Assembly (NCBI GenBank): GCA_965248175.1
Contig: OZ252093.1
Location: 2,681,108 to 2,745,107, forward strand
DNA from: Rhodothermales bacterium
Lineage (GTDB): Bacteria > Bacteroidota > Rhodothermia > Rhodothermales > VXPQ01
Direction of reading: 5' to 3'
DNA: 64,000 nucleotides
Each line of letters opens with the position of its first letter. The first letter of the stretch is position 1. The notes under the pieces are model-generated. The model made no database searches and had not been told where the DNA came from. It saw only the letters and a program-made list of their open reading frames with translations. Positions 8,849-27,957 of this stretch are shown in pieces. Made by a program: the position numbers and the translations under genes.

Positions 8849-9472
8849 TCACAACGTCTTCCAGGGCGCTTCCGACAATCCCAACCGTTCGATCTCGGAT
8901 TTCGGGGCGCCCGTCCACTCGTGTACAAACACGTTCCCCATATAGCCCAGATCGGCCATGCCCGCCTCCGTGGTCCAGAACCCCGAAGCGGTCAAATCGC
9001 GGAAGAAGCTGAAAAAGATCACGCCAGCCGTAAGCGCCGGGTCGGCATCCTCGGGCCAGGCGATCGCATCGACCATATCCATGCGTTGCACATCGGAACA
9101 CGCCGCAAACGGCGCCCCGAACCGTTCCCGGGAATACGTATCCAGCCAGGCCAACCCCTGGCGCATGGGGTCCTGCATATACGGCATATCCGTCACGATA
9201 AAGTCCATGAATTCCGGCACGCCCACATCTGTCGCACTCCCTGAACGGTCGTCCGCCGGAATAATCATGTCCGCAAGGATACGCACCGTCTCGTACTCCT
9301 CGTCCGTAAAAAACTGCGGGGAAAAATCCCCCCGGGAACGGGCCTCTGCCGCCTCCCGGGCAGCGCGTTCGGCATCAGAAGCGGTCCACCGGCATCCGGC
9401 TGCCGTCAGTACGCCGGGCGCTGTGGCCGACAAGGCCAAGGCCAGCAGTTTAAGCGATTCTCGGCGATCCAT
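8849..9472 (-). CDS. Gluconate 2-dehydrogenase subunit 3 family (Tat small subunit of the GMC enzyme)
   Basis: MDRRESLK, LADMIIPADDRSGSATDVGVPEFMD, TASGFWTTEAGMADLGYMGN; directly downstream of GMC gene. Confidence 0.85.
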   Translation of the reverse strand: MDRRESLKLLALALSATAPGVLTAAGCRWTASDAERAAREAAEARSRGDFSPQFFTDEEYETVRILADMIIPADDRSGSATDVGVPEFMDFIVTDMPYMQDPMRQGLAWLDTYSRERFGAPFAACSDVQRMDMVDAIAWPEDADPALTAGVIFFSFFRDLTASGFWTTEAGMADLGYMGNVFVHEWTGAPKSEIERLGLSEAPWKTL

Positions 9473-11241: not shown

Positions 11242-11327
11242 GGCGGTCGAAAATGGCGAGAGCTATGTGGAAAATACACAAGCCGGTTCCGGCTACAACG
11301 CTCGCATCCCGGCCATTCGACCTGTAG

Positions 11328-12416
11328 TTAACGACGTTTGCCTCTCGGATGCAATACGTTTCCTGTCTTTCCCTGGGCAAATCCCTCGATCCCCTGAAAT
11401 ATCTCGCTCACGCAGGGCATGGGAGGATTGTGGCACTCCGGTACGTTCGTGGGAAACAGCCCGGTGCATTTGGGCAGGAAGTTATATCCGGCCTGAAGAC
11501 TCGTTTCCGTTGCCGGGGTCCATACCCTGCCTATGCCCTCCCCGGCTCCGAAGAAACCGTAGCCGTTCTTCACGTTGGAAAACGTGCCCGGCACCGACAG
11601 CACGTTCGCATCGAAAACTCCTCCGGGCGGCGCCCATGCCGAATCCGCAATCAGGCCCGAAAACTCCATCTTCCGGAGCCATACGTCCGGGGCGCTTTCT
11701 TCCGGATCGGTGATCAGGCAGTTGATCTGGTAGGCGCGCCGTACGATTTCGAAATCCCGATCCATGTCGATCGTGAAGCGCCAGCCTCCGGGAATGCGCT
11801 CGACCCGATCGTCGTACGAAACGATAACCGGCAACTGCACGGCCGGAGCAACCGGAGTACCCTGCGGCCAGGCCTGAGGAGGTGGAACATTGATCGCGTG
11901 GTACGTCACGCGCAGCCCGATGAGATTCGGTACATTGCCTTCGATAAAGACAGGAATGGTAACGCTTGACTCGCCGGTTTCAAGGGTGAAATCTGCGGCA
12001 GGTGGCACGGTCACCTCAGCACTGGCCGTTTCGCCGTCCGAGCGTACCACCTCGAGCAGATAGCGATCCTCATGCTGCGGGCGGAACGGGGCCATAAAAA
12101 AATGTCCGGTGATCAGACTGTCGAAATGCACCCTCTCATACATCCATTCCCGGCGCTGGCCCGTCGTACGATTCGTGGAAAATACGCGGGCGTCGATCTT
12201 CGCATCCCGGTCGGGAATCAGTTGATCAGCGACTTCGAAGACACGTACGTACTGTGTGTCGGCAGCGGAGTCCAGAAAGCCCCAGATCGTGAAAGGGATT
12301 TCGGTCCCTGTAATAGCATCCACGCTCTCCTCGCAACCGGCGGTCGCCAGCAGCAAACCCAGGAACATCGCCATTGCAAGAATCCGGGCAAACGCCCTGT
12401 TCCGCATGTCATTCAT
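11328..12416 (-). CDS. Lipoprotein partner of the TonB receptor (DUF4249-like)
   Basis: Lipobox ATAGC; FTIWGFLD...QYVRV; SNVKNGYGFFGA near C-terminus; 9 bp downstream of TBDR. Confidence 0.65.
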   Translation of the reverse strand: MNDMRNRAFARILAMAMFLGLLLATAGCEESVDAITGTEIPFTIWGFLDSAADTQYVRVFEVADQLIPDRDAKIDARVFSTNRTTGQRREWMYERVHFDSLITGHFFMAPFRPQHEDRYLLEVVRSDGETASAEVTVPPAADFTLETGESSVTIPVFIEGNVPNLIGLRVTYHAINVPPPQAWPQGTPVAPAVQLPVIVSYDDRVERIPGGWRFTIDMDRDFEIVRRAYQINCLITDPEESAPDVWLRKMEFSGLIADSAWAPPGGVFDANVLSVPGTFSNVKNGYGFFGAGEGIGRVWTPATETSLQAGYNFLPKCTGLFPTNVPECHNPPMPCVSEIFQGIEGFAQGKTGNVLHPRGKRR

Positions 12417-12425
12417 GGAAATATC

Positions 12426-14714
12426 CTAAAATTCGACCTTCAGGCCGACAATGGGCACGATGGGCAATTGATCGGTACGCTGGGCAGTGAGCAGGTCCAG
12501 GGAAAAAAGATTCGACCGGTCATAGGCATTCATCACACCCGCCTGCACCGTCATTTCCGCCCCCAAGGCTACGTCGAACGCCCGTTCCACGGTAATGTCC
12601 AGCCGGTGATAGGTCGGGAGCACGCCCCGGTAGGGAATGCTTTCGTAGATGACACGGGGGAATCCACGCACATTTCTGACGGCAACGGGACCGTCCATGA
12701 GCACGAAACCATCGAATCCCTCGACCGGCGTGTACGGCAATCCTGAGCCGAATTGCCACCGGGCGCTGATATCGAATCCGTATACCACGGTCTTCGCCAG
12801 CACGTTGACCTGGTGGCGCCGGTCGTGGGGCGGGCGGAACCGCCCGGGGTTTATCACCGCCGGACTCTCCGGATCGATCTCGTACCGGGTAGAAGACAGC
12901 CCGTAGTTTACGAATCCGTAAAAACGGGAACGCCGCACTTCCATGCGCAAATCAAATCCGTATGCATCGCCATGGGCCTCCTGCAAGCGCGTGGTGAAGC
13001 CGGGAAACGCGGTCCACTCCCCAATGAAGATGTTGTCCATGTTCTTGTAAAACCCCTCGATGGAGCATTCCAGCCAGGGAGTCGGTTCTACCCGGTATCC
13101 GAGCAGCGCATGCATGGAGCGCATGGCGTCGCTGGAGGGTGTTTGCGCCCATGCCGTAAAAATGTTGGTGGCGTCACGTCGGTCGCTCAGGCCCACGATC
13201 ACCTGCCGGTAGATGCCCGCCGCCGCGCTCCACTGGTGGACGCCGCGTTGGAGGCGTAGCCGCAATCGGGGTTCGAAGTAATCGCCCGTACTTCCCATCG
13301 TTTGCACGGTGAGCCCCGGGCGCACGTACATCCCGGCGCCGACATATATCTCGGGTTCGACATACGCCCCCACGTTCGTTGGGGCGCCCCGCCCTATCAT
13401 AAGGTCCTGAAACAAGCCCCCTAACACGGTTTCCGTCAGGGGCGTACGCAGAAAAAATCCCCACTTTATCTCCGTACGCTGGCCGAAATTCGTCATATTG
13501 AGGGCGAGATTGAATAGCTCGAGGTCAGAGGTCCGGATCGGCTCGTCACGGGGACCGAAGGAGCTTTCGAGGCGCGAAACGGAAACAAGCACTTCGCTCA
13601 GAATGGGAAGAATGCGCGGCGCCACGAGATATCGCACACCGAGCGCCGTGTTGCGCCAGCTGACCTCATCATCCCGCCGGAATACATCATCGGTGGGCGT
13701 AAGCGTGCCCCGGTCAAACGTCTTCAGCCCTGTCACGGAAAGCTGACGATTCGGTCCTATGCGCACATGTATTTTTCCAAATACGTCATCGAATACATAG
13801 GGGAGCGGCGCAGAAACGTACCGGGAAGCCAACTGGTCCAGCGTCGAATACCGGGCGGCGCCCAGAAAAGATATGCGGCCAGGAAGGATGGGCCCTTCGA
13901 GATGCCCCGCACTGGTAAAGGGCGACAACGCCGCAGAAGCATTGAAGCCGCGCTTGTTTCCATTACGCGAATGCACATCGATGACCGAGGATATTCTTCC
14001 CGAAAATTCACTGCCGAACCCCCCGGCGTAGACATCGGCCCGGTTGACGATTTCGGAAGAAAAGGCCGAATAAAAACCCAGAACATGGAAGGGCTGAAAA
14101 ATCTCGATCCCGTCGAGCAACGTCAGGTTTTGCGTAGGTTCGCCGCCCCGGATAAATACCTGTCCGCCCCGGTCGCCCATCAACACCACGCTGGGGATCG
14201 TGGAAAGGTAGGAAACCAGATCGCCCGAAATGTCCGGTGAAGGAATGAGATCGATATCCTGGGGGCGGATGGTTTGCTGTCCGGCGGTCACGCGCGCTGC
14301 GCCATCGTCACGCTCCGCCTCCACGAAAATGCCTTCCATCGCCATCTCGTCTTCCCGCAGCACGATATTGACCAGCAGGCGATCGTCGGCCTCGATGTCC
14401 AGCGTATCGACATAGGTGACGAACCCGATAAAGGAAGCCCGGAGCGTGTACCGCCCGGGGGAGATGCGGCCTATGAGAAAAAAGCCGTCCCCGTTCGAAA
14501 CCGCACCCTCCAGCCCGCCGGTCATGTTGTCGATCGTCAGGTTGACGCCCTGCAGGGATTCTCCGCCCGGATCCGCCGTAACGAAACCGCGAATCGAAGC
14601 GGATTGCGCCCTCGCTTCAAGCAACAGCCCCGGAGTCGTCACCATGGTCAGACCCGCGACAGCCATCAACCCCCACCGGAGAATACGCCCGCTTTCGATG
14701 CCCGATAACGTCAT
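12426..14714 (-). CDS. TonB-dependent receptor with N-terminal carboxypeptidase-regulatory-like domain
   Basis: Signal peptide, GRYTLRASFIGF, plug motif FIRGGEPTQNLTLLDG, HDRRHQVN, LPTYHRLDI, C-terminal F. Confidence 0.9.
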   Translation of the reverse strand: MTLSGIESGRILRWGLMAVAGLTMVTTPGLLLEARAQSASIRGFVTADPGGESLQGVNLTIDNMTGGLEGAVSNGDGFFLIGRISPGRYTLRASFIGFVTYVDTLDIEADDRLLVNIVLREDEMAMEGIFVEAERDDGAARVTAGQQTIRPQDIDLIPSPDISGDLVSYLSTIPSVVLMGDRGGQVFIRGGEPTQNLTLLDGIEIFQPFHVLGFYSAFSSEIVNRADVYAGGFGSEFSGRISSVIDVHSRNGNKRGFNASAALSPFTSAGHLEGPILPGRISFLGAARYSTLDQLASRYVSAPLPYVFDDVFGKIHVRIGPNRQLSVTGLKTFDRGTLTPTDDVFRRDDEVSWRNTALGVRYLVAPRILPILSEVLVSVSRLESSFGPRDEPIRTSDLELFNLALNMTNFGQRTEIKWGFFLRTPLTETVLGGLFQDLMIGRGAPTNVGAYVEPEIYVGAGMYVRPGLTVQTMGSTGDYFEPRLRLRLQRGVHQWSAAAGIYRQVIVGLSDRRDATNIFTAWAQTPSSDAMRSMHALLGYRVEPTPWLECSIEGFYKNMDNIFIGEWTAFPGFTTRLQEAHGDAYGFDLRMEVRRSRFYGFVNYGLSSTRYEIDPESPAVINPGRFRPPHDRRHQVNVLAKTVVYGFDISARWQFGSGLPYTPVEGFDGFVLMDGPVAVRNVRGFPRVIYESIPYRGVLPTYHRLDITVERAFDVALGAEMTVQAGVMNAYDRSNLFSLDLLTAQRTDQLPIVPIVGLKVEF

Positions 14715-14725
14715 GCGTCCAGGTT

Positions 14726-15970
14726 TTACGGTTGGAAAAGCCGTTCGGAGGACGCGAGTTTCGCCAGCGAGCGGAGCGCCGCCTGATTGTCCGGTTCAAT
14801 GCGCAAGGCGGCTTCCCAAGCCCTGCGTGCGTTCTCGGGATCCCCGGACAACGCATACAGACTTCCCAGATTGATCAGCGCATGGGTATTTGACGTATCC
14901 GCCTGCACGATGGTCCGGAACGATCGAATTGCGAAAAGGGTGTCGCCTCGCAGCAAATGCAGCACCGCTACATTGTTGCGAAAATCGGGATTTCCCGGAG
15001 CGATATAAAGCGCTACCCTGTAGGCATGCATGGCGTCGTCGTAGCGGCCCGCCCGCCGCAGCAGGGAACCCAGGGTCGCATGCGCATACGGATCGCCGGG
15101 GTGTACCCGCACGGCGGTCTCGCGCTGCGTGATCAGCGCCTGCAATGTGCGGAGCGCCTCGGCGCGTTCCTGAAGCACCTGCGCCTCTTCCACGCGCCCA
15201 AGGCGCATGTACGCCTGGGCCATGTTGTAATGCGCCCCCTGGTGCCAGGGCCATTGCGCTACGACCGTTTCAAGGAGGTCAAGCGCCTCGTCCCAACGAT
15301 TGAGCCGAACCAGATATGAGGCCGCATGGTACCGGTATTCGAGGTTGCCGGGCTCCTGCGCAAGGGCTCGCTGCGCTTCGCGCAGGGCGCCCTCATGATC
15401 CCCAAGATCGTCCAGCAGCAACGCCAGACCAAAATGTGCGGGGGCAAATTCGCTGTCGATCGACAGCGCCTGTTCGAAGGCATAAAGGGCACTGTCTGTC
15501 TTGCCCAACTCGACGTACGACCGGGCGATTTCCCGCCACGGCCTCGGATCGGGATGCGCCTGGAACTCGCGCAGGTAATACCGGATCGCTTCGCTGAACT
15601 CCTGGCGTCGGAACGCCGTATTGCCAAGGTTATGCCAGGCGCCCGGGTAGGTCGGGTGCATGGCAAGCGCTACCCGATACGCCGAGTCCGCCTTGTCGAA
15701 ATTCGCCAGCTCGGCGTAAATTCGTCCACGCAAAAACGGAATGTCAGCCAGGTCCGACGAGAACACGGCCACGCTATCGGCAAACGCAAACGCCCGTTCG
15801 AAGTCGTGTCGCTGCAAGGCTTCGGAGCCGAGGCGCAGAAACCGCTCTGCCGTAAGACTCATCGGTTGCACGGGATCCGTTGGCGCAGAACGCCCGCAGC
15901 CTGAGGAAGCCAGTGTGCAAAGAGCGACTATCCAGAGCAACACCGGCCGACGAGAAAAAAGGGTCCACAT
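14726..15970 (-). CDS. TPR-repeat lipoprotein
   Basis: Lipobox ASSGC; multiple TPRs (AWHNLGN, AHFGLA, AHYNMAQ, ALINLGSLY). Confidence 0.9.
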   Translation of the reverse strand: MWTLFSRRPVLLWIVALCTLASSGCGRSAPTDPVQPMSLTAERFLRLGSEALQRHDFERAFAFADSVAVFSSDLADIPFLRGRIYAELANFDKADSAYRVALAMHPTYPGAWHNLGNTAFRRQEFSEAIRYYLREFQAHPDPRPWREIARSYVELGKTDSALYAFEQALSIDSEFAPAHFGLALLLDDLGDHEGALREAQRALAQEPGNLEYRYHAASYLVRLNRWDEALDLLETVVAQWPWHQGAHYNMAQAYMRLGRVEEAQVLQERAEALRTLQALITQRETAVRVHPGDPYAHATLGSLLRRAGRYDDAMHAYRVALYIAPGNPDFRNNVAVLHLLRGDTLFAIRSFRTIVQADTSNTHALINLGSLYALSGDPENARRAWEAALRIEPDNQAALRSLAKLASSERLFQP

Positions 15971-15976
15971 AGCGTT

Positions 15977-17857
15977 TTACCTGCTCCGCGCGGCTGGCAG
16001 CGCAAAGGATCCGGCGGCAAGCGTGTCGGAACGGTCGGTGGCATGGATTGGAGCATCCGGCAATCCGATGAACGGACTGGCAACAATACTGTCGGCTCCT
16101 TCGACGACCAGTACGTTACCGGAAGCCACTTCCGCATACCAATCCTCCTGACCGCTTGGCCAGTACACGGCCAGCGAATCGACCCGATCCGCTTCGCCCA
16201 GTCCAAACGTGACGACCTTCTCCGACGCCGACAGAAAACTCGATCCCGTACGCACGAATCGCTCCATACGCCGTCCCCCTACCCGGGCGACTACGCGAGC
16301 CGACAGGCCATCCCGATTACTGTTTCGCCCTTCAAGACGCACGCGCAAAGGGCGCCCCCCGGCCAAGTCGTTGCGCAAGAGCCAGGCGCCTCCCCCATTC
16401 TCGGTAATCAGAATGTCGAGGTCTCCATCCCGGTCGTAATCCGCATAGGCAGCGCCGCGTCCCACCATGGATCGAGCCAATGGACCGCCCAGGATCGGCG
16501 CCGCATCCTCGAATATCCCCTCACCCCGGTTGAGAAAAAGATGCGGGGGTTCCGCGTAGGGGATACCTTCCTGCGTCTGTTCGATTTCCGGCTGAACATG
16601 CCCGTTGGCTGCGAACAAATCCATGTCGCCATCGAGGTCCGCATCGAAAAGGAACAGGCCAAAGGTAAGCGTAAGCAAGCTGGGGCGTCCGATCCGCGAA
16701 ACGGCAGACCGGTCAAGAAACAATCCCTTCCCGTCGTGGCGAAACACGCTGATCATTTCCTTCGAGAAATTCCCTACAAAGAGCGTGGCTTCGCCGCTCT
16801 CGTCCACCACCCCGACATCAATGCCCATGCCGGCGCGCGCCTTGCCGTTCTCGTCGTAGGCCATCCCACTCAAGGCCCCCTGTTCCGTGAACGTACCGTC
16901 CCCGTCGTTAAGATAGAACAAATCCCGCTGGGTATCGCTGGCGACCACGAGGTCCGGCCACCGGTCCTTGTTGAAATCCCATTCGGAAACACCCAGCATC
17001 TTGCCTGGAGCCGGCAAAAACCCCGCCTGCTCCGTCCAGTCGACGAACATTCCGTTGCCGTCGTTGCGATAGAAACGGGAGGGTACGCCTTCGTACAACT
17101 CGGGCGTGCAATAACTTCGGATGTGCCCCTCCAGCATACATACGAGATCGGCGCCGGGAGACCATGCGACGTAGTTGCCCACATACAGATCGACATGGCC
17201 GTCGCGATCGGCGTCGAAGAAAATAGCCGAGGTGCTCCACTGCGGCGAACCCGCAACGCCTGTCCGGCTCCCCGTTTCCGAAAACGTCCGCATGCCGCCG
17301 GGGCCTGCATCGTTGCGAAAGAACAGGTTTTCACCAAGGGTCGTCAGGTAAATGTCCTGATCGCCGTCGTTGTCATAGTCGGCTGTCGCCACGCCAATGC
17401 CGTAGGCGTAAAAACCGGCCAGGCCTACCTCCTGCGTCACTTCCCGAAACGCGCCGTTGCCTTCGTTTCGATACAGGCGAATTGCTTCGACCGGGGCTCT
17501 CGGTTCGTCAGCGTGTTCCGGCCAGACGCCGCCGCCCGCAAGCAAAATATCGATCCACCCGTCGTTGTCGTAATCGACGAAGCCGCCACCCGATCCCATC
17601 GCCTCGGGAAACCAGTGGTTCCCAAATGCCCCTGTGACATGCCGGAAACCGGCAAGACCCGCTTGTTCCGTCACATCGGTGAAAGCAAGTACAGGCGCCG
17701 CCTTACCCCGCACCGTCTCTTCCCCAACGGAGGCAGGAGGATTTGCAGGCGAACAGGCAGCAAAAACGGCAAGCGGCACGCACGCACCCCATCGCAAGCA
17801 ACGCGCAATCCGTGAACCATTCTTCCCGAGCGGCGGGATGCGGACGGGTATCGTCAT
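15977..17857 (-). CDS. CRTAC1/ASPIC-UnbV family FG-GAP repeat lipoprotein
   Basis: DYDNDGWIDI/DYDNDGDQDI/DADRDG Ca-binding repeats, SNRDGLSARV...GSSFLSAS...TFGLG ASPIC domain, lipobox VFAAC. Start placed at ATG 17857 (ATGA overlap with upstream remnant). Confidence 0.9.
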   Translation of the reverse strand: MTIPVRIPPLGKNGSRIARCLRWGACVPLAVFAACSPANPPASVGEETVRGKAAPVLAFTDVTEQAGLAGFRHVTGAFGNHWFPEAMGSGGGFVDYDNDGWIDILLAGGGVWPEHADEPRAPVEAIRLYRNEGNGAFREVTQEVGLAGFYAYGIGVATADYDNDGDQDIYLTTLGENLFFRNDAGPGGMRTFSETGSRTGVAGSPQWSTSAIFFDADRDGHVDLYVGNYVAWSPGADLVCMLEGHIRSYCTPELYEGVPSRFYRNDGNGMFVDWTEQAGFLPAPGKMLGVSEWDFNKDRWPDLVVASDTQRDLFYLNDGDGTFTEQGALSGMAYDENGKARAGMGIDVGVVDESGEATLFVGNFSKEMISVFRHDGKGLFLDRSAVSRIGRPSLLTLTFGLFLFDADLDGDMDLFAANGHVQPEIEQTQEGIPYAEPPHLFLNRGEGIFEDAAPILGGPLARSMVGRGAAYADYDRDGDLDILITENGGGAWLLRNDLAGGRPLRVRLEGRNSNRDGLSARVVARVGGRRMERFVRTGSSFLSASEKVVTFGLGEADRVDSLAVYWPSGQEDWYAEVASGNVLVVEGADSIVASPFIGLPDAPIHATDRSDTLAAGSFALPAARSR

Positions 17858-18170
17858 GGAGAAGCGGATAGACCGGTGGATTCGGCTTGTTCCGCGGCTT
17901 TCCGGGAAGCGACCCTCGCCACGGCCAGCGCCTGTCGTTGTTCTACGTGACGACCGGCATGGCCCAAGCCAGGCGGCAAGCGCCCGCCAGCGAGCAGGGT
18001 CGTCGGGATAACGAGCGGCGGCGGCGCGAGCCTGCTCGATCTCCTGGTCGAGATATTGCAATGCCTCCGTGGCCTCAAGATGAGAACGCGCTTCCTCCTC
18101 GCGTCCCAGCGCCTTCAGCGCCCGACCAGGATTGTACCGGGCGCCTGCATCGTAGGGCCGGGCATACAAA
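17854..18170 (-). pseudogene. 3' remnant of a third TPR gene, frameshifted
   Basis: RPYDAGARYNPGRALKALGREEEARSHLEATEAL...YPDDPARWRALAAWLG then frame change to HAGRHVEQRQALAVA...*; aligns by eye with both neighbouring TPR proteins. Confidence 0.75.
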
Positions 18171-18206
18171 AAACGCGAGGACAATGTACAATAACGGATA
18201 TTTCCG

Positions 18207-19448: not shown

Positions 19449-19524
19449 GAGACTCCTTCAGAAAATCATCTTGCCGCATCCCGGCCGCCGCGTATGCAAA
19501 CGCAGGCGCTACGGAGACGGTTCG

Positions 19525-21288
19525 CTACGGGACGACAGGCAATGCAGTCCGGGACACGATACCCTCCCCCTCAAGCAAATATACCTCATGGCCGGCCGCC
19601 AATCCGGTATGACGCGCCATCCGACCATCCGGCCAACGCACGGTGAGCGTATCGACCCGATCCGCCGGCCCCAAGCCGAACGTCAGGGTCTTTTCCGACT
19701 GCGAGAGATACCCGGAACCTGTCCGCACCCGGCGCACCTGCCGCACACCGCCCGCTGTGACCGTCACCTGAGTACCCAGTGCATCGCGATTGCCCGCTCC
19801 ATCCCCCTGACGCCCCTCAAGACGTACGCGCAACACATGCCCGCCGCCAGAAGAATCGTTGCGCAACAGGCGAACCGGACCATTGTTTTCGGTCACCAGC
19901 AAGTCCACATCTCCATCGCGGTCATAATCGGCCTTTGCCACAGCCCGGGCTACCATAGCCTCCCTGAATACGCCGCCAATGGAATCAGCCATATCCACCC
20001 ACGTTCCGCCCCCCTCGTTTACAAACAGGTGCGGCGGCTGCTTGTACGCCGACCCATCGATCGGATCGAGGTACACATGCCCGTTGGCCACGTACAGGTC
20101 AAGGTCGCCATCCAGCTCGGCGTCGAAGAGCAGCACCCCGAAAGCGAGCGTGGTAAGGCTGGGCCTCCCGATGCGGGACGCCGCTGCGCGATCGGCAAAC
20201 CACCCGCTCGCCGTACGCCGGTATACCCCGATCATTTCACTGGAAAAATTGCCCACGAAAACAGACGGCATGCCCGTCGTATCCACGATCCCGATATCCA
20301 CGCCCATCCCGGCACGGGCTTCCCCGTGTTCCCCATAGGCAATGCCACTGTAAACCCCTTGCTCGGTGAAAGCGCCGTGTCCGTCGTTGATGTACAACAG
20401 GTCCGGCTCCCCATCGTTCACCACCACCAGGTCAGACCAGCCGTCCTCGTTAAAATCCCATTCGGCAACAGCCAGCGACTTGCCGGGCGTATCCGAAAAA
20501 CCGCTTGCGTGCGTACGCTCGGTGAACGTACCGTCTCCGTTGTTATGGTAGAAATAACTCCGGGCGCCCGGGTACATGGCGGGGCGGCAATAGTCCGATC
20601 GCCCGTCCGCCCGAAAACATTCCAGGTCACTGGAAAGCGACCACAAGGCGTAACCGGGCACGTAAAGGTCGAGGTGTCCGTCCCGGTCGGCGTCAAAAAA
20701 CAGCGGCGAACTGCTCCATCCGGCGGGACCTGCCACGCCCGCGGTACGCCCTGTCTCAGTAAAAAACCGTGCCCCCGACGGCCCGGGATCATTGCGGAAA
20801 AGCAGATTCTCTCCGAAGGCCGCAAGAAAAATATCCTGATCGCCGTCGTTGTCGTAATCGGCTGCGGTTACCCCGGTTCCCCAGGCGCGGGCATCGTCCA
20901 GCCCCGCTTCACGGGTAACGTCGGTAAACGTCCCGTCCCGGTTGTTGTGAAAAAGGCGCAAGGCGCGTACGCCCGCCGGTCCCGTCGGCGACAGACTCCC
21001 GCCGCCCACCAGTACAATATCTTCCCAGCCGTCCGCGTCGTAATCCAGAAATCCGCCCCCGGCGCCCATCTGTTCGGGAAACCAGAAACGATCTTCGCTT
21101 CCGTTTTCGTGCCGGAAATCGCCCAGACCGGCGACCGGAGCTACGTCATGAAATGCAATGGGCAGAAGCCCCTCGGGCGGATTTCCCTGCTCATCCCCTC
21201 CGCATCCGCCGATAATCCCCCCCCCTGTCGCGATGAAAATCGCTACCCAGATGTCCTCACGCAGACGCACCGCCGGGAAGGTCATCAA
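19525..21288 (-). CDS. CRTAC1/ASPIC-UnbV family FG-GAP repeat lipoprotein (paralog of 15977-17857)
   Basis: DYDADGWEDI, DYDNDGDQDI, ARAGMGVDIG, NRDALGTQV...GSGYLSQS...TFGLG; lipobox-like IIGGC. Confidence 0.9.
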   Translation of the reverse strand: MMTFPAVRLREDIWVAIFIATGGGIIGGCGGDEQGNPPEGLLPIAFHDVAPVAGLGDFRHENGSEDRFWFPEQMGAGGGFLDYDADGWEDIVLVGGGSLSPTGPAGVRALRLFHNNRDGTFTDVTREAGLDDARAWGTGVTAADYDNDGDQDIFLAAFGENLLFRNDPGPSGARFFTETGRTAGVAGPAGWSSSPLFFDADRDGHLDLYVPGYALWSLSSDLECFRADGRSDYCRPAMYPGARSYFYHNNGDGTFTERTHASGFSDTPGKSLAVAEWDFNEDGWSDLVVVNDGEPDLLYINDGHGAFTEQGVYSGIAYGEHGEARAGMGVDIGIVDTTGMPSVFVGNFSSEMIGVYRRTASGWFADRAAASRIGRPSLTTLAFGVLLFDAELDGDLDLYVANGHVYLDPIDGSAYKQPPHLFVNEGGGTWVDMADSIGGVFREAMVARAVAKADYDRDGDVDLLVTENNGPVRLLRNDSSGGGHVLRVRLEGRQGDGAGNRDALGTQVTVTAGGVRQVRRVRTGSGYLSQSEKTLTFGLGPADRVDTLTVRWPDGRMARHTGLAAGHEVYLLEGEGIVSRTALPVVP

Positions 21289-21345
21289 GAAAAAAGAAAC
21301 GTCGGAAAAGACCCGGGGCGGTTACGAAGACCGGTGCGTCGTCAC

Positions 21346-22365
21346 TCAGAAGGTCAAACTGACGCCCATGCGGTGAACGGCGCCGAAGAGGCCGAAATCT
21401 GTGTAGGCGTAATCCGCCGAGAAACCGACGACCGAGGTGCCGTACTGCACCCCTCCTCCGAAACTGAGGCTCTGCTCGTCGGTCGGATACGTGTATCCAG
21501 CCCGCAACGACAGAATGTTCCTCAGCGTGTACTCACCGCCTGCCTTAAGCTGTTCGGCAAAGTCGCGCGGGCGCTCCGCTTCCACCGAAAGCCGGAAAGC
21601 GTGCATATTCGGATCCATGTCCGTCAGATCAAGCATATTCATTGACAGGCCCACATTGAAGGTGAGCGGCAACTCGAAATTCTCGTCCACATACCGGAGC
21701 TCCCTGGAGAAATTCCGTACGCTCATGGCAAGATTCAGGCTGCGAAAACCCGTCTTGTAGAGCATCCCGAAGTCGAATGCGGTCGTGGAAACCTTGTTTT
21801 CTTCGGTCGTCCCGGCCGCCGACACCACCGCCGCGCCGAGATCCTGGGAAACGTACTTCGCATTGGCGCCCACAGAGAATCGGTCGGTCACGCCCAGGGC
21901 GTACCCTATGCCGATCGCCATGGATGACGGACTCGGGTCGGGTACGTTTTTCATCTCACTATACTCCATGTACCCTCTCTCATTGGCGGCGGCCACCGTA
22001 GCGATGACGCTCCCGTAGTCGGAAAACATCAGCGACGCCCCGAATATCCCGTAGCTGGTATTCACCGCAGCGCTTGCAGCATTGTACGTAATGTCTGCGA
22101 TCCAGTTCGTGATCCCGAAACCCGCGCTGAACCGACGATCCAGCCGGGCCATACCCGCCGGGTTGTAGAACATGGCGGCCGACGAATTAAAATCGGCGGC
22201 TGTCATGGCATCACTCAAGGCAGCAGCGCGGGGGCTGAGGGATATCTCCAGGAACTTGAAACTCGTTTGCGCGAGTTTGTCCGTACCGACATCCTCCGTC
22301 GAAGTCTGAGCAAACGCCCCCGGCGCAAGGAAAAGAAGAAGCGCCAGAATGCCGATCCGTTTCAT
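21346..22365 (-). CDS. PorV/PorQ-like (UPF0164) outer-membrane beta-barrel
   Basis: MKRIGILALLL signal peptide; FKFLEISLSPRAAALSDA, AMFYNPAGMA, LSLRAGY, ADYAYTDFG...HRMGVSLTF. Confidence 0.8.
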   Translation of the reverse strand: MKRIGILALLLFLAPGAFAQTSTEDVGTDKLAQTSFKFLEISLSPRAAALSDAMTAADFNSSAAMFYNPAGMARLDRRFSAGFGITNWIADITYNAASAAVNTSYGIFGASLMFSDYGSVIATVAAANERGYMEYSEMKNVPDPSPSSMAIGIGYALGVTDRFSVGANAKYVSQDLGAAVVSAAGTTEENKVSTTAFDFGMLYKTGFRSLNLAMSVRNFSRELRYVDENFELPLTFNVGLSMNMLDLTDMDPNMHAFRLSVEAERPRDFAEQLKAGGEYTLRNILSLRAGYTYPTDEQSLSFGGGVQYGTSVVGFSADYAYTDFGLFGAVHRMGVSLTF

Positions 22366-22448
22366 GTAGTTGCAATGTGTCATTGAATCTCCTCGATTTG
22401 AGGCTTCGGTTTGGCAAGCAACGGGTAGAAACCGCTGTGACCGCATAT

Positions 22449-24680
22449 CTATCGAATGACGATGAATTTCTGGATGGCTTGCTCGTTCGTAGCGAGGTTG
22501 GTGATGACGGCAATGTAAATGCCGCTCGCAACCACCTGCCGCGAAGAGGTCGTCATATCCCAGAACTCGTCACCACTTCCGTCAAGGTGATCGATGGTCC
22601 TGATCAGCTCGCCCAGTTCGGAGTATATCTCGATACGAGACTCTCCGGGAATCTCGTAAAAAGCCATACGGTCCTGCACATCGAGACGTACGGCCGGATC
22701 GGCGCCGAGATGATAGGGATTCGGAACAATACGCACCTCGCTCAGCGATTGCCCGGGCGGACGCCGCAGGAACGCGGGGCTATAGATCTGCGCATAGTAG
22801 CGATTGGTCCTCGTACCGTCGCTGCCGACACCCTGCAGGTAGTAGTAGTAGGAGCCACCTCGCACCACATCCGTGTCCTCATAACTCGTCGCACCGCCCG
22901 GCAGAGTCTGGACCAGTGCATACGCACGCGCCTGATCCGGCACGGCCAGCCCGTCAGACCCCACTTCGAGAGCCGTCACAATCCCGGAGTAGTGCTTCTG
23001 GGCCCGGTAGAGTTCCCACGCGGCCGGCGCCTGCGAGGCGGTCCACGCGATGTCGATTTTATCCGTTCCGGACGTCACGATGAACGAGGAGGGCGGCGCG
23101 GGCGGGTGCGGTGCATTTAACCCTCCCCGGTAGTTATCGATGGCGCGCTGGAACATCTGAAACATCGAATCGCGCGCCGTCATAAACCACTCATTCTTCG
23201 TCATCGCCTCGTCGGTATCGATCACCCCGTTACCGTTGGCATCGAACTCGATAATCATGTCGTCATCCCAGCCGGATAATTTGTAGGTCCGGCCGATGTC
23301 CCACGCTGCTTCGTCGCTCAGTCCTGCAATGCCTTCCGCAATGACGACCTTCACCTCCTCGCCAAACGCTATGTCGTAGGGTCCGAAGGCCTGTACAAAC
23401 CCGAAGCCGCCGGCGCCGCCACCAAAGGTGGGGTCAGCCGTCTGGTTGGCAAAGTCGGGGTCCTCGTCATAGGGAGTGCTCGCCGTTTGCCCTTGAACGA
23501 GTCGTGCCTGTGTCGGCCAGCTACGTGGAACGCATTCTGGCGTGCCCGGCTCGGCAACCTTCCCGGTGGGTACCGGCGCGGAGCCACACTCGAACCACTG
23601 GTACTCCAACGCCATATTCGTCTCGTTGTTGTGATCCGAGGTACTGGTGAGATCACCGAAGTCCGAGTTCAAATACGATACCATGCTCGGTTGCCCCCGG
23701 TCATCGGGCGAGGATTGTCCTTCGGCATGCGCCTCCGTATCCGCATGAACGGTCACGACGCCCGTGAAATTGGCGCTGCCAAGGCGGCCCAACGTATCGG
23801 CGGGTATCGGATTCCTGCGGTGGTTGGCCCAGAAGGGGTTGCCGAGCGTGTTCAACGGGAATCCGGTAGCTTCCTTGATATTGCCCAGCCATGCGAACGA
23901 CGCGCGAAGATCGACGCCGTAATCGCTGAGGCCATCGCCGACGGCGTCGTTCATGGTGTACTGCCCCCAGGCGACTCCGCCGGCGCTGTTGTCCCAGGCG
24001 CCCGCAAATCCGGCGCCCGTCGGACGTTCGAGGAACATGACGTAAACGCCCTCCAGATCATTCTCCGCCTCGATATCGGGGTCGCCGTCCTGGTCGCCCG
24101 TGTTGACAAACGTATACTCGATAAGGTGATAGTTTTCGTGGTCTGGATGGCTCCACTGCATCGCTGCCCGGTTCACCGTCAAGCCGATGGAGGTATTGAT
24201 CTTCGAGACTACCATGCGGTCGGGCGCCATGCCGGGATCGATCTGGTCGGGGATCACGGGCTGCAGGAACGTGTCGAACCCGTCCACCTCCACCGTCGTC
24301 GGTTCGTATCGGGAATACAGGGCATGTGAATTTGTAACACTGAACACCTCCCCGATGCCGGGCACACGGGGGCCCGTGTGCGAAACGCGGATGGGAAAAG
24401 TCTTCCCGCCTTCCACGTCCTGCACGTTTTTTGCCCCGACCCAGAATCCCTTCCAACGGCTATAACCCGCACTGGGCCGGATGGCCGGGTAATTCCAGAC
24501 CACATTGCTTCTTTCGGGATTGGCTCCTCCGGACAGGTACCAACTCTGGAGGTCACCAACATTGAGCCATTTGGGGATCCACTGGGCTTTCGCCTCCTCA
24601 ATGGGCCCGGCCAGCGACAACACCAGCGCCAGGCCGGCTGCCATGCATCCCCATGTGCGGATGGATTGAACGATTCGCAT
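22449..24680 (-). CDS. Secreted protein with Fn3-like domain and T9SS-type C-terminal domain
   Basis: Signal peptide; PHPPAPP linker, DIAW...YEDTDV...YYYY Fn3-like; EVRIVPNPY...IYSELGELIRTI...WD...VASGIYIAVI...KFIVIR CTD. Confidence 0.75.
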   Translation of the reverse strand: MRIVQSIRTWGCMAAGLALVLSLAGPIEEAKAQWIPKWLNVGDLQSWYLSGGANPERSNVVWNYPAIRPSAGYSRWKGFWVGAKNVQDVEGGKTFPIRVSHTGPRVPGIGEVFSVTNSHALYSRYEPTTVEVDGFDTFLQPVIPDQIDPGMAPDRMVVSKINTSIGLTVNRAAMQWSHPDHENYHLIEYTFVNTGDQDGDPDIEAENDLEGVYVMFLERPTGAGFAGAWDNSAGGVAWGQYTMNDAVGDGLSDYGVDLRASFAWLGNIKEATGFPLNTLGNPFWANHRRNPIPADTLGRLGSANFTGVVTVHADTEAHAEGQSSPDDRGQPSMVSYLNSDFGDLTSTSDHNNETNMALEYQWFECGSAPVPTGKVAEPGTPECVPRSWPTQARLVQGQTASTPYDEDPDFANQTADPTFGGGAGGFGFVQAFGPYDIAFGEEVKVVIAEGIAGLSDEAAWDIGRTYKLSGWDDDMIIEFDANGNGVIDTDEAMTKNEWFMTARDSMFQMFQRAIDNYRGGLNAPHPPAPPSSFIVTSGTDKIDIAWTASQAPAAWELYRAQKHYSGIVTALEVGSDGLAVPDQARAYALVQTLPGGATSYEDTDVVRGGSYYYYLQGVGSDGTRTNRYYAQIYSPAFLRRPPGQSLSEVRIVPNPYHLGADPAVRLDVQDRMAFYEIPGESRIEIYSELGELIRTIDHLDGSGDEFWDMTTSSRQVVASGIYIAVITNLATNEQAIQKFIVIR

Positions 24681-24726
24681 AATGTCTCTCGGTCTTCAGG
24701 ATGTCAGGAATGGTTGCCGGCTATGT

Positions 24727-27700
24727 TCAGAAGGATATCCGCAAGCCGAAGAACACGTTGCGCGGGTTCAGGAACTGGCTGGACATCCGGTTCGGCATGT
24801 TGATGTATGCCTTGTCCTCCAACACCTGGTCCACTTTGCCCTGGTCCGCAGCCGCAAAGGAACCGTCGCTCCACTCGTAATACTTGTTCTCTTCCGGCAC
24901 ATAATAGAGCGGCCCTCCTTCGCCGGCCCCCGGCAACTGCCCTTCAACGATAGGCACATAGGCCACGTCCGGCTTCCGAAAATCACCCGGCCGGTCGTCT
25001 CCGTAGAGCCCGGCGTCAGGAGAATCGGGAAGTGTGGATTGCGGAAGGTGCAGCGACCCCATATACCGCGACAGATCCTGGTCGCCAGCGCCGAAGAGTG
25101 CGCCGCCCGCAAAGTACAGGTGGCGGATGTTGAGCACGTTCGTCATGTCCACGAAGAACTGGGCGGAGCCGAGGCTGGTGTTGAAGCTCTTGCTGAAACG
25201 CATGTCGAGCGTGTAGTAGTCTTTCCAGCGAACATTCCCTTGCAGTTCGCGGGGGCCGCTGCCTGTAGCACCAGTCAGATTTAGACCGTCCCAGGTCATG
25301 GACACTCCCTGACGCCATTCGCCGAGGAAGTTGATACGCCAGTCGCCGAGCGGATAACTGCCCCCGACTTGAGGGCCGATCTCTTGCGGAAAGAGAAACT
25401 CAAGGTTGAACCGCGCAAAGGGCTCGGGGATTGGCTTGCTCGTGTAGTGCTCCTCCGTGGTCGTGACGAAGTTCTGTTGCGCCGTGCGGTTCTCGTCAAA
25501 CCGGCTGAACCCGAAATTGCCCGTCTTTCGCACCATGTACGTGTAATTGACGAATCCGCGGATCCACTGGCCCCGGTTCCTCGTGAGCGTAACCTCGAAG
25601 CCGCGCACATCGCCGTAGTTCCAGGGCAGGGCGGTGGTATATCTGACCAGGTCGTCGAGGCTGATGTACTGGACATTGCGCGGCTGGTTACCCAGATCCC
25701 GGTAGTACCCGGCCAAGCGCAGCAGGTACTGGTTGAACAGGCTCTGGTCGAAACCCAGTTCGTAGGCCACCGTTCTCGGCATCGGGTGGTTGGGGTTGCC
25801 GATGTTCACGAGCGCGCCGGCGGATCCTTCCTCGATGTTGAAGAGCCTCATGGGGTTGAGTGCGTTCCGGAAATGGCCGTAGTTGAAATACAACTTGCTG
25901 TCGTCCGTGACCGGGAAGGAGATGCCGATGCGGGGACTCAGGGCAAGCTGACGCTGCGTGGGTTCCTGATCAAGCAGTTCGTCGATGTGGGCCCGCCCGA
26001 TGGCCGCTGAAAACGTGCGCTCGTACGTGTCGTACGTGTACCAGTCTCCGCCCGCATGGAAATAATCCAGCCGCACGCCCACATTGGCGACCATGCCCCG
26101 GAATTCGAGTTTCGACTGGGCATACGCCGCGGCTTGCTGTGGCTTGCGGTTCCAGAGCCGCTTGGGATTCGTATGGTGCGGGTGCTCCGGATCGTTCTCA
26201 CCGAAATCGGTATCGTAGTTCGAGTAGATGTACTCGACGCCCGCCTTGCCCAAAAGGAAACGGTTGCGCTGGCTGGTGACGTCGAACCGGCCCGTGAAGC
26301 GGTTTACGCTCGAATTATCGTACCCGCTGCCCCAGTGGCCCGACGTGCGGATGCCCAGCACTTTATCGAACTGGTCCTTGATGCTGAAGCCGTAAGGCTC
26401 TTCGTTGAGCATGATCCCCCCGTTCAAATAGGGGTAGGTCGGCTCAAGGTTCCGAGGTTCGATCGTGCGCGTATCATAGTCGGTGGTGACGTTCTGGAGC
26501 TGCACCTCGTAGAAGGTGTTCGCGTTCAGCGCGTGCGTGAACTGTGCGCCGAGCATCAGGCGGTCGACATCCATCAGGTTGTACAGCATGGGGGAGAAGT
26601 ACCCTCCGAATTGATCGATTTCTTCGTCGTCCTGCCAGCCGTACATCGATTGGTGGAGACCCGAGCTTTGCCAGGGGTAATACAGCCTGTCGCCCGTCGT
26701 GAGATCGGGCCACCCTGATTCATTACGATTGAGCCCCATTTGCTGTCCGTAGAGCCCGGAGAGCGTGAGTTTCATGCCGGGGGAGAAGTTCGAGATCAGT
26801 TTGGCCTGGCCGGTGCGTTCCTGGAACGCGTCCCGCGCATGCCCACCGAACGCATAGGCCGTCTGTGTCTGCCGGAACGAGGCCGTGAACCGCAGGTCGC
26901 CGAGCAGGTTACTCAGCACCGGCACCGGCCCCCCAATGGTAGCGTCGACTTCGTAGTCGGGCGCTTGCACCGATATGTCGTTCCGCAGGTAGTGATCGAA
27001 AAAGACCGACTGCAGCTGCTGACCCGTAAAATTGGTTCCCTCTCGACCATTATAGCCCTCCGCTATCGCGTCCCATCCCGCAAACGTGTAGTATTCCGTC
27101 TGCATCCAGGACGGCCACGCTCCTGTTCCCGCAAACGTCGTAACCGAATCCACGAGCGGGCGGATGTAGAAACTCGTTTCGGAGCTCAACATGTCAACGT
27201 CATTGCCCTCGACATCGACGCCCGGGAAGTTTTTCTGCGACGTTGGGCTGTAGCGCACAATGGCGTCTACGAAGTACTGGTTCCGCTCCGGCTCTTTCGT
27301 AACGACATTAACAAGCCCCGAACGCACATTGCCGTATTCCGCATTGAAACCGCCCGTCTGCACCTGAACTTCCTGTACAGAGGTATAACTCACGCCCGTA
27401 TACGGCGTGTTGTCGCGCCCGCTGGCCATCGACAGGCCGTCCACCATGAACTGGATCTGGTCGCCGCCGAAGCCACGCACGGTAAGACCCCGCTCGAAAC
27501 CAGCCTGCAACCCGATAACCCTTTCAATGTCGGTCACCGGAAGGTTCTCTATTTCTTCCGCCGTAATGTTCGCCACGCTGGCCGAAACGTCGCGTTGCAC
27601 GACAGGCCGCACATCCGTAACGACCACCTCCTCGAGGCCGACCGCTTCTTCCTGCAGGACAAAGTCAATCTCGGTCGTCAGGCCGATATTGACTCGGACA

Positions 27701-27957
27701 CCCTCATGCACCTCGGGGGCGAATCCGATGAACGAAGCCCTGAGATCGTGCGATCCGGGACGCACGTTCACGATGAAGTAATAGCCGTCCGCATCGGTAA
27801 TGGCGCCCTGCGTCGTGCCCGAAATGGACACGTTTACACCGGGTAACGCCTCGCCGGTTGAAGATTCCGTGGCCTGACCGGCGATTTTACCTGTTTGGGC
27901 CCAGGCAGAGGCTGGAAGAAAGAGAGCAAGCGCAAACAGTAGCTTTGCGAATCTCAT
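24727..27957 (-). CDS. TonB-dependent receptor (1076 aa)
   Basis: AQTGKIAG...LPGVNV, VRGFGG...QTGGFNAEYGNVRSGLVNVVTKE plug, SPRIGISFPVT, C-terminal FGLRISF. Confidence 0.92.
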   Translation of the reverse strand: MRFAKLLFALALFLPASAWAQTGKIAGQATESSTGEALPGVNVSISGTTQGAITDADGYYFIVNVRPGSHDLRASFIGFAPEVHEGVRVNIGLTTEIDFVLQEEAVGLEEVVVTDVRPVVQRDVSASVANITAEEIENLPVTDIERVIGLQAGFERGLTVRGFGGDQIQFMVDGLSMASGRDNTPYTGVSYTSVQEVQVQTGGFNAEYGNVRSGLVNVVTKEPERNQYFVDAIVRYSPTSQKNFPGVDVEGNDVDMLSSETSFYIRPLVDSVTTFAGTGAWPSWMQTEYYTFAGWDAIAEGYNGREGTNFTGQQLQSVFFDHYLRNDISVQAPDYEVDATIGGPVPVLSNLLGDLRFTASFRQTQTAYAFGGHARDAFQERTGQAKLISNFSPGMKLTLSGLYGQQMGLNRNESGWPDLTTGDRLYYPWQSSGLHQSMYGWQDDEEIDQFGGYFSPMLYNLMDVDRLMLGAQFTHALNANTFYEVQLQNVTTDYDTRTIEPRNLEPTYPYLNGGIMLNEEPYGFSIKDQFDKVLGIRTSGHWGSGYDNSSVNRFTGRFDVTSQRNRFLLGKAGVEYIYSNYDTDFGENDPEHPHHTNPKRLWNRKPQQAAAYAQSKLEFRGMVANVGVRLDYFHAGGDWYTYDTYERTFSAAIGRAHIDELLDQEPTQRQLALSPRIGISFPVTDDSKLYFNYGHFRNALNPMRLFNIEEGSAGALVNIGNPNHPMPRTVAYELGFDQSLFNQYLLRLAGYYRDLGNQPRNVQYISLDDLVRYTTALPWNYGDVRGFEVTLTRNRGQWIRGFVNYTYMVRKTGNFGFSRFDENRTAQQNFVTTTEEHYTSKPIPEPFARFNLEFLFPQEIGPQVGGSYPLGDWRINFLGEWRQGVSMTWDGLNLTGATGSGPRELQGNVRWKDYYTLDMRFSKSFNTSLGSAQFFVDMTNVLNIRHLYFAGGALFGAGDQDLSRYMGSLHLPQSTLPDSPDAGLYGDDRPGDFRKPDVAYVPIVEGQLPGAGEGGPLYYVPEENKYYEWSDGSFAAADQGKVDQVLEDKAYINMPNRMSSQFLNPRNVFFGLRISF

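Follow-up and report, generated by a model that had tools for sequence, protein, structure and literature searches.

On the minus strand of a 64,000-nt stretch of the genome of a Rhodothermales bacterium (GenBank assembly GCA_965248175.1, contig OZ252093.1, contig positions 2681108-2745107; hereafter the window, whose own positions are used below unless contig positions are named), three adjacent genes encode a TonB-dependent transporter (TBDT), a secreted protein bearing a type IX secretion system (T9SS) C-terminal domain (CTD), and an outer-membrane barrel of the PorV/PorQ family. This trio is made of the 1076-aa transporter TBDR1 (24727..27957), of a 743-aa protein that we call the middle protein (22449..24680), and of a barrel encoded by a 366-aa open reading frame (ORF; 21346..22446), a private paralogue within its family whose translation probably starts at 22365. 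Downstream lie two pairs of lipoprotein genes, ASPIC1 (19525..21288) with its partner TPR1 (18207..19448) and ASPIC2 (15977..17860) with TPR2 (14726..15970), in which a CRTAC1-like protein composed of an FG-GAP propeller and a UnbV/ASPIC domain is followed by a tetratricopeptide repeat (TPR) protein. These are followed by a second TBDT of 762 aa, TBDR2 (12426..14714), and by a DUF4249 lipoprotein (11328..12416). A preliminary description of this DNA had reported nine co-directional and closely packed genes, and the ORF list returns all nine on the minus strand and at the same coordinates, with intergenic gaps of 2-86 nt when the longest ORFs are taken; the run does not stop at 11328, since it counts 12 genes rather than nine, with three oxidoreductase-type genes continuing beyond that position. 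As also described earlier, the N-termini of five of the nine proteins (ASPIC1, ASPIC2, TPR1, TPR2, and the DUF4249 protein) are lipobox-like, and those of TBDR1, TBDR2, the middle protein, and the barrel display a Sec-type signal followed by Gln, which in the middle protein stands at the predicted mature N-terminus. In Bacteroidota, substrates of signal peptidase I typically have Gln right after the point of cleavage. Pfam and NCBIfam give no match to a SusD, glycoside hydrolase (GH), or lyase family for any of the nine proteins, in agreement with the initial picture of a cluster with neither SusD nor a recognizable hydrolase.

The first member of the trio, TBDR1, begins with a Sec signal and a CarboxypepD_reg-like, SusC-type N-terminal extension (NTE), followed by a plug and a barrel, and its Pfam matches (PF13715, PF13620, and PF07715, the last of which is also found in TBDR2) identify it as a plug-in-barrel TBDT. 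In the structure comparisons made with VIA, its AlphaFold2 (AF2) model, with a predicted local distance difference test score (pLDDT) of 85.0, aligned with BtuB (1nqe_A; Z 29.5, root-mean-square deviation [rmsd] 2.5, 516 aligned residues), and its barrel with Cir (Z 28.9) and with the SusC-type proteins ButC (25.2), BT2264 (24.1), and RagA (23.6); the Foldseek TM scores all lie at 0.39-0.48. The NTE aligned with that of the SusC protein BT3090 (9hfj_A; Z 9.7, rmsd 2.2, 80 aligned residues, 30% identity), and a sequence search of the PDB with TBDR1 gave 0 matches at E<=0.001.

The AF2 model of the middle protein (pLDDT 84.2; predicted template-modeling score, pTM, 0.83) divides into three parts: a galactose-mutarotase-like supersandwich with insertions (residues 31 to ~525; 23106..24590), hereafter the N-domain, a fibronectin type III (FnIII) domain (~530-640), and a variant T9SS CTD (644-743; 22452..22751) that ends in a K-F-x-[VI]-I-[KR]-type motif. 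The protein has no Pfam match at E<=0.01, the generic T9SS tail family PF18962 included, and no enzyme family match in Pfam or NCBIfam; its C-terminus matches only the tail of the PorZ model NF052228 (E 5.1e-5, residues 644-743). With the N-domain, the ESM Atlas returned only clusters of "hypothetical protein" (scores 0.91-0.93), and a Foldseek search with the whole model was dominated by FnIII matches, with little on the N-domain. A wide VIA search resolved this domain: it aligned with the N-domains of a glucoamylase (1lf6_A; Z 18.5, rmsd 3.3, 246 aligned residues) and of a GH94 enzyme (2cqs_A; Z 18.4, rmsd 4.0, 274 aligned residues), with GH65 and GH116 enzymes, and, at Z 12-13, with galactose-mutarotase-like proteins, no Pfam match being found for it at E<=0.01. 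We read the N-domain as carbohydrate-binding-like, the fold itself showing no function. A GH15, GH65, GH94, or GH116 identity was considered for the whole protein and ruled out: the (alpha/alpha)6 catalytic domain is absent from the AF2 model, in which only the FnIII domain and the CTD follow the N-domain, so that the middle protein is not one of these supersandwich-sharing enzymes, and no Pfam match relates it to them. The premise that this CTD protein is not a known stand-alone enzyme stands; its N-domain has a carbohydrate-associated supersandwich fold.

The tail of the middle protein aligned with the PorZ CTD (5m11_A; Z 11.9, rmsd 2.3, 89 aligned residues, 20% identity by VIA), which indicates that a T9SS CTD fold is present; the genome, a single 2.98-Mb contig, encodes SprA (1847 bits) and one true PorV (288.2 bits) at contig position 1969296, adjoining a 1342-aa PorU-sized gene. 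The barrel of the trio belongs to the PorV/PorQ family, with 180.2 bits on NF033709 over residues 60-366 against a cut-off of 90, and it falls below the cut-offs of both equivalogs, PorV (NF033710; 64 bits, or 59.1 in the genome search, vs. 250) and PorQ (NF033711; 68.4 bits vs. 220). The genome contains 14 matches to the PorV family (13 above the cut-off), 30 to Plug, and 2 to SusD; in it, eight trios of a transporter, a large protein, and a PorV-family barrel were found, one of them ordered receptor, barrel, protein, as well as a ninth protein-barrel pair without an adjacent receptor (contig positions 348709-351570). Nine of the 14 PorV-family barrels are thus adjoined by a variant-tail protein, and eight of these nine proteins also have a TBDT beside them; the middle proteins of these trios and pairs range from 662 to 1299 aa in length. 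Four genes match the profile of the middle-protein family along most of its length, namely the window gene, a paralogue flanked by insertion sequences (IS), and two tandem copies, and six more proteins match only the C-terminal part of this profile (E<=2e-12), each of them adjoining a PorV-family barrel. The variant tails share a K/R-F-x-[VI]-[IV]-[KR]-type ending, and none of the 53 PF18962 matches of the genome at E<=0.01 lies on a trio middle protein. The tandem trio copies, near-identical and ~10 kb apart (contig positions 1596920-1603537 and 1606586-1613368), encode proteins of ~740-757 aa and two barrels that both score 185.6 bits.

The IS-flanked paralogue (contig positions 2208908-2211118) is informative with regard to this association between tail and barrel. 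Indeed, a segment of 2289 bp that is 95.3% identical to the window gene runs from 361 bp upstream of it through ~codon 642, after which a generic tail follows (PF18962, E 4.9e-5), and no barrel or receptor gene adjoins this paralogue, which, judging from the sequence, amounts to a natural tail swap and control. Two identical 331-aa ORFs in opposite orientation are found near this paralogue and are probably IS copies. Structure prediction points in the same direction: the complex of barrel residues 20-339 (52-sequence alignment) with middle-protein residues 528-743 (32-sequence alignment) received ipSAE values of 0.89, 0.89, and 0.90 in three runs, versus 0.21 for the best control; the runs agreed in at least 95% of contacts, with a partner pLDDT of at least 76, and the confident interface residues of the middle protein all lie within 650-743. 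In the calibration of the tool, 58 of 80 solved complexes attained the mark used for such models, as did 2 of 110 mismatched pairs. PorV-cargo complex structures have been solved, so that the success of the model may reflect likeness to them; the model supports a binding of the tail to the barrel but does not demonstrate it. The expectation that the CTD is held by its co-encoded PorV-like barrel is, as regards binding, supported by the prediction.

It is worth asking whether the barrel might instead be a FadL-type channel or an assembly factor of the transporter, in the manner of BamF in the barrel assembly machinery (BAM) of Bacteroidota, rather than the holder of the middle protein. In favor of this are a weak FadL/Toluene_X match of 25.7 bits, which lies under the cut-off, a weak match to an NCBIfam BamG-family model (E 0.004), and the fact that one subunit of the Bacteroidota BAM complex is homologous to FadL (bioRxiv 10.1101/2025.01.31.636011). 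We find this very improbable, since the PorV/PorQ family cut-off is exceeded by a wide margin, since the barrel pairs with a variant tail even where no TBDT is adjacent (the ninth pair mentioned above), and since the barrel-tail model passes its controls.

The nearest precedents for such a pairing come from Porphyromonas gingivalis, where PorQ-PorZ and PorV-PorU each bring together an uncleaved-CTD T9SS protein and the PorV-family barrel that holds it on the surface; the PorZ tail is retained and binds PorQ, and cognate PorV-like barrels may protect tails from cleavage, according to PMC10202324. PorZ held by PorQ is a closer model than the SprB/SprF pair that had first been invoked, SprF being a protein of the PorP family that serves type B CTDs (PMC10202324). 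Like PorQ-PorZ, the window pair combines a PorZ-CTD-like tail, a PorV/PorQ-family barrel, and a predicted interface, and its tail would likewise be retained. It differs in that the barrel is neither the PorQ nor the PorV equivalog and in that the genome holds nine such pairs; moreover, unlike PorZ, the cargo is not a part of the secretion machinery but a sugar-binding-like protein encoded with a TBDT.

These observations bear on a simpler explanation, in which the middle protein would be an ordinary T9SS cargo enzyme with a novel glycan-acting or mutarotase-like activity, released or anchored to anionic lipopolysaccharide (A-LPS) after cleavage of its tail, with the barrel serving just as its own shuttle toward the SprA translocon and the transporter importing the products. 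The supersandwich is the catalytic fold of aldose 1-epimerases and contributes to the active sites of several lyases and hydrolases, the homologues of the middle protein show almost no variation at several Asp, His, and Glu positions, and PorV is described as a shuttle (PMC10202324). We nonetheless hold this explanation to be unlikely: the tail forms a separate, PF18962-negative class that resembles the retained PorZ tail, the true PorV already present in the genome would serve the 53 generic tails, and the generic-tail paralogue needs no private barrel. The lack of an enzyme family match and of the (alpha/alpha)6 domain, reported above, also counts against it.

If the trio forms a functional association, its gene order may be expected to recur elsewhere, as the preliminary description had anticipated. 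A word-indexed search found 41 close homologues of the middle protein, and a survey restricted to one genome per species returned 599 pattern matches, 582 of them in genes for relatives of the middle protein; the best 80 loci were kept and their ORFs searched with the window's 12 proteins, a locus being said to have room for a direct neighbor when at least 600 bp were available. Of the 77 loci with room upstream, 75 have a TBDR1 homologue as the direct upstream neighbor of the middle-protein gene, and of the 76 with room downstream, 75 have a PorV-family gene as its direct downstream neighbor, so that the conservation of the order transporter, CTD protein, barrel is confirmed; with such recurrence across genomes, chance is a remote explanation of the arrangement. 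In one exception (L033), the receptor stands ~850 bp from the middle-protein gene. The trio loci belong to Rhodothermota, Ignavibacteriota, KSB1, Calditrichota, Fidelibacterota, and Kryptoniota, plus bins labeled Bacteroidota, and cultured carriers of the family include Stygiobacter electus and Roseithermus sacchariphilus, whose strain MEBiC09517 has, besides the trio, both ASPIC/TPR genes and the pair of TBDR2 and DUF4249 at its locus (L016). At E<=1e-3, a profile of the N-domain built from 68 sequences matched 714 cluster representatives among 1.84 billion, 317 of which remained at E<=1e-30; some of these matches are longer proteins in which the domain precedes or follows other parts; this profile also matched 53 of 201 sampled genomes of the phylum (32 of 110 genera) and 10 of 11 other genomes of the window's own order.

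A further observation comes from three metatranscriptome runs of two studies, each of which yielded a contig (of 6656, 6810, or 6832 nt) that is 3-6% diverged from the window and covers the three trio genes with little beyond them. These contigs span positions 21202, 21247, or 21401 to ~28000 and stop within ~150 nt of the end of the barrel gene, which weakly suggests that in a close relative the three genes belong together as a unit; such contigs show no transcripts, and the libraries may contain DNA.

Downstream of the trio, both ASPIC proteins exceed the cut-offs of PF13517 and PF07593, which makes them members of the CRTAC1/ASPIC-UnbV group, and TPR1 and TPR2, each with a lipobox-like N-terminus, match TPR families of Pfam. 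The duplication of the pair that had been proposed is real, ASPIC1 and ASPIC2 being 54% identical and TPR1 and TPR2 33% identical. The longest ORF of ASPIC2 extends to 18184, and its start is probably at 17860, where a signal peptide and a lipobox begin. The 108 in-frame codons in between (17861..18184, minus strand), judged by eye from their translation, resemble the middle of TPR proteins and may be the relic of a third TPR gene. In close relatives, an extra TPR ORF is present near the region matching 17861-18184. By sequence, the only relatives of the ASPIC proteins in the PDB are CRTAC1 (9etn, the best profile match with 81.5 bits) and integrin alpha chains, and the ASPIC profile matched no lyase family by sequence, with a lyase-like fold still conceivable. 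Vertebrate CRTAC1 (9etn) has the same make-up of FG-GAP propeller and UnbV/ASPIC; the bacterial members differ from it in being lipoproteins with a TPR protein as partner or fusion part and in having outer-membrane transporters encoded beside them. To our knowledge, no function is known for bacterial ASPIC/CRTAC1-like proteins. We found no functional account of ASPIC/UnbV together with SusC or TonB, PMC3174227 giving just table entries on this subject, and no literature treating the CRTAC1 family or the VCBS repeat together with SusD.

Two genomic contexts inform on how these pairs may work. First, 34 of the 120 longer ASPIC1 homologues listed are ASPIC-TPR fusions in the same order, in which an ASPIC part (~residues 5-620) precedes a region homologous to TPR1 or TPR2 (E down to 6e-39), several of them with lipoprotein-like N-termini; since the two are fused in other lineages, the pair forms one functional unit. 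Second, at contig positions 1273775-1286000 of the same genome, three ASPIC/UnbV genes (631, 1125, and 1121 aa) come after a SusC/SusD pair, from which it follows that the same accessory serves both types of transporter. Two further ASPIC genes lie near the second SusD match at contig position 1355722.

As for the last two of the nine genes, TBDR2 carries PF13620 and PF13715 in addition to the plug, and the protein beside it, whose lipobox is followed by acidic residues, matches PF14054 with 32.9 bits against a cut-off of 28.5, which qualifies it as a putative lid. All seven DUF4249 matches in the genome (7/7) stand beside a receptor of ~800 aa, and a sequence search of the PDB with the DUF4249 protein gave 0 matches at E<=1. 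Price, Deutschbauer, and Arkin (bioRxiv 10.1101/2023.03.17.533168) propose, from AlphaFold-Multimer contacts predicted on the outer face of the transporter and from cofitness, that the DUF4249 lipoprotein BT2173 is the lid of the TBDT BT2172. TBDR2 and the DUF4249 protein, first counted in with an undescribed system, match this published putative-lid type and would form a second transporter with a putative lid.

Whether the nine genes make up one system can be questioned, as the trio, the ASPIC/TPR pairs, and TBDR2 with its DUF4249 protein might be independent neighbors on a shared genomic island. That ASPIC genes follow a SusC/SusD pair elsewhere in the genome is in keeping with this idea, and so are the boundary of the metatranscriptome contigs, which coincides with that of the trio, and the occurrence of DUF4249 pairs at 6 other genome sites without a trio. 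Likewise, among the 63 loci that offer 4 kb or more of room, 47 have no ASPIC gene; the trio is followed by ASPIC genes in the other 16, and by ASPIC and TPR genes together in 14. The ASPIC-linked loci nevertheless group together: when the 68 N-domain rows are placed on a quickly built maximum-likelihood tree, every one of the 19 ASPIC-linked rows belongs to a single 26-row set (SH-aLRT, a Shimodaira-Hasegawa-like approximate likelihood ratio test, 100) that spans Rhodothermota and Fidelibacterota and includes the window. Within this set, ASPIC is found in 19 of the 21 rows with downstream room, versus 0 of 42 rows outside it, and of its seven unlinked rows, five lie on contigs ending soon after the barrel gene and two correspond to a single Fidelibacterota locus (L020). 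The pair of TBDR2 and DUF4249 recurs in 8 of the 19 ASPIC-linked loci, and the short gaps between the nine genes, of 6-86 nt if the uncertain ASPIC2 start is set aside, count against independence as well, so that we judge mere neighborhood to be quite improbable. In the other large clade of the tree, a TIG-domain protein and generic-tail proteins lie downstream of the trio. The ASPIC/TPR pairs had been taken as accessory modules of the system, and this holds insofar as they are a conserved accessory, but of one clade only.

The surroundings of the cluster are rich in genes related to sugars. The three genes that prolong the run, separated by gaps of 50-86 nt and likewise on the minus strand, encode a glucose-methanol-choline (GMC) oxidoreductase downstream of the DUF4249 gene (9523..11241), a small subunit similar to gluconate-2-dehydrogenase subunit 3, with a twin-arginine translocation (Tat) signal and a lipobox (8849..9472), and a xylose-isomerase-like TIM barrel with a Tat signal (7826..8764). 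The flank on this side further contains three Tat-motif Gfo/Idh/MocA proteins, ApbE, a CxxCH propeller protein, and an esterase. The propeller protein (5582-6793, plus strand) has a signal peptide, a CxxCH haem-binding motif, and a Vgb_lyase/SGL-type propeller; being a neighbor of the Gfo/Idh/MocA and ApbE genes, it may be a periplasmic redox partner. The other flank encodes an alpha/beta hydrolase, alcohol and aldehyde dehydrogenases, a PfkB kinase, a DeoC aldolase, and UxaE, together with LutABC-like genes, an aldolase-II/short-chain dehydrogenase fusion, and an FGGY kinase, and we read the last of these genes as pointing to rhamnose- and uronate-type catabolism. The genes at 39987-48341 (minus strand; LutA/B/C-like, the aldolase-II fusion, and the FGGY kinase) look like a rhamnose catabolic set, interrupted by an rve-type integrase gene at 45273-46277. 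In the cultured Stygiobacter electus, whose locus belongs to the other large clade, the upstream genes encode a T9SS-tailed GHL10 protein together with a sensor kinase of the Reg_prop/Y_Y_Y kind, and the locus also has TIG and CTD proteins.

Other features of the window stand apart from the cluster. Mobile-element genes flank the sugar loci, with a fragmentary rve integrase at 31083-31868 (minus strand) and a Mutator-family transposase at 53109-54350 (plus strand). At 58100-60330 (minus strand), two overlapping ORFs match positions 18-104 and 143-401 of the profile for the alpha-amylase catalytic domain, which may reflect a GH13 gene that is frameshifted or broken, or else an error of sequencing. 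A generic-tail T9SS protein of 783 aa (55512-57863, minus strand) and an ATP-binding cassette exporter with a C39 peptidase, of the bacteriocin type (61769-63931, minus strand), appear unrelated. The 1.25-kb region upstream of TBDR1 (27958-29203) holds two ORFs without a Pfam match, and no regulator was identified there; the whole window gave no Rfam match at gathering thresholds.

Taken together, we consider it reasonably probable that this cluster is a SusD-independent outer-membrane uptake locus, built from modules and comparable to a polysaccharide utilization locus (PUL), whose binding partner is held in the manner of PorZ by PorQ, and we class it as a TBDT and its surface partner combined with a PorQ-PorZ-type anchor. 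Comparative and model evidence supports well the trio and the pairing of tail and barrel. On this reading, the private barrel would bind the variant tail and prevent its cleavage, so that the middle protein would stay on the surface beside the transporter, capture a substrate that is probably a glycan or a glycoside, and deliver it to TBDR1, a role that in Bacteroidia falls to SusD or to surface glycan-binding lipoproteins. The ASPIC/TPR pairs, a two-gene form of what is a single polypeptide elsewhere, might bind or process the same substrate. In the periplasm, the Tat-exported GMC oxidoreductase and its small subunit, the three Gfo/Idh/MocA proteins, and the TIM barrel suggest a processing that would be oxidative rather than hydrolytic. 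This view of an oxidative periplasmic processing of an imported glycoside or oligosaccharide is one that we infer by analogy with 3-keto-glycoside pathways; the literature searches on this subject returned no paper.

Several observations weigh against this interpretation. The modeled barrel of TBDR1 does not appear to resemble SusC structures more than it does BtuB or Cir, and TBDR1 stays below the cut-off of the SusC/RagA model TIGR04056 (70.4 vs. 368.25 bits, over model positions 2-118 only), as does TBDR2 (34.6 bits). The supersandwich could be enzymatically active, since there are conserved histidine and acidic residues. At locus L020 (positions 9953-14525 of a Fidelibacterota chromosome), two tandem members of the middle-protein family, both with the variant tail, have no adjacent TBDT or barrel. 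The ends of the metatranscriptome contigs at the trio boundary, if meaningful, argue that the ASPIC/TPR genes are off the same abundant transcript. Over positions 7000-26900, promoter-like sites (2 vs. 7.3 expected from shuffled sequence) and terminator-like sites (21 vs. 18.9) are no commoner than in shuffled sequence, so that the scan gives no operon boundaries, a weak terminator-like site being seen at 11281-11294, between the DUF4249 and GMC genes. Finally, the genome does contain SusD, with its 2 matches away from the locus, so that the trio is not a replacement forced by the absence of SusD; the SusD-independence first put forward concerns the locus and not the organism, which is not SusD-free. 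The genome that carries L020 also holds a complete trio with ASPIC/TPR genes (L041).

How the proposed uptake locus relates to known systems can be specified further. Like the SusC/SusD (RagA/RagB) utilisomes, it places a large TBDT with a SusC-type NTE beside a putative surface partner in a context of sugar genes; unlike them, it has no SusD homologue in the cluster, and its TBDR1 is below the SusC/RagA cut-off. The partner also differs from SusD in being a non-lipoprotein T9SS substrate with its own barrel, all-beta rather than helical; its lid-like position is a proposed one. Non-SusD partners of non-SusC TBDTs are described in Bacteroides, where BtuG, XusB, and the DUF4249, DUF4625, and DUF4876 lipoproteins serve, or are proposed to serve, as lids (bioRxiv 10.1101/2023.03.17.533168); these are all lipoproteins in that text, in which the terms T9SS, PorV, "type IX," and "secretion" do not occur, whereas the trio partner would reach the surface, and stay there, by another route. 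A locus of comparable composition is the alginate locus of Rhodothermus marinus (accession ON640824), whose order, as given in PMC9530828, is a TonB-dependent receptor (2,805 nt), hypA (2,181 nt, for a protein annotated with a T9SS type A sorting domain), and hypB (PorV/PorQ family, 1,056 nt), next to the characterized PL6, PL17, and PL39 alginate lyases, the genes being listed as hypothetical and not studied in that paper. The order and the types of annotation are alike and the gene sizes close, the likeness noted here being one of annotation, order, and size; unlike the window locus, this one has lyases and no ASPIC/TPR genes. As the preliminary description had supposed, we found no functional description of the trio in the literature, although supplementary files, which lie outside such a search, may list such trios.

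A wider proposal can be built on these comparisons, toward which we remain tentative and on balance lean slightly against: barrel-anchored T9SS proteins would be a third general class of TonB-transporter partners, next to SusD and the lipoprotein lids, in which the variant tail would act as an address to lasting attachment on a cognate PorQ-like barrel near the transporter instead of to cleavage by PorV/PorU. Rhodothermia, Ignavibacteria, Fidelibacterota, KSB1, and Calditrichota would then rely mainly on such proteins, and not on SusC/SusD, for the capture of glycans, in the window's clade together with CRTAC1-like propeller-TPR units, the function of which in bacteria could then be put to the test for the first time.

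From the perspective of glycan uptake, SusC/SusD pairs are how polysaccharide utilization loci get recognized and counted, and loci based on the trio are invisible to SusD-based PUL prediction; in the present genome, eight trios face two SusD matches. The trio-bearing phyla include several that are abundant in marine, sediment, and hot-spring communities, and, if our interpretation is true, the glycan-uptake capacity of these groups would have been underestimated so far. The T9SS would then gain a role in the positioning of transport partners, and the subclass of a tail could predict whether a cargo is retained or cleaved. Likewise, the large CRTAC1-like/TPR family would gain a concrete physiological context.

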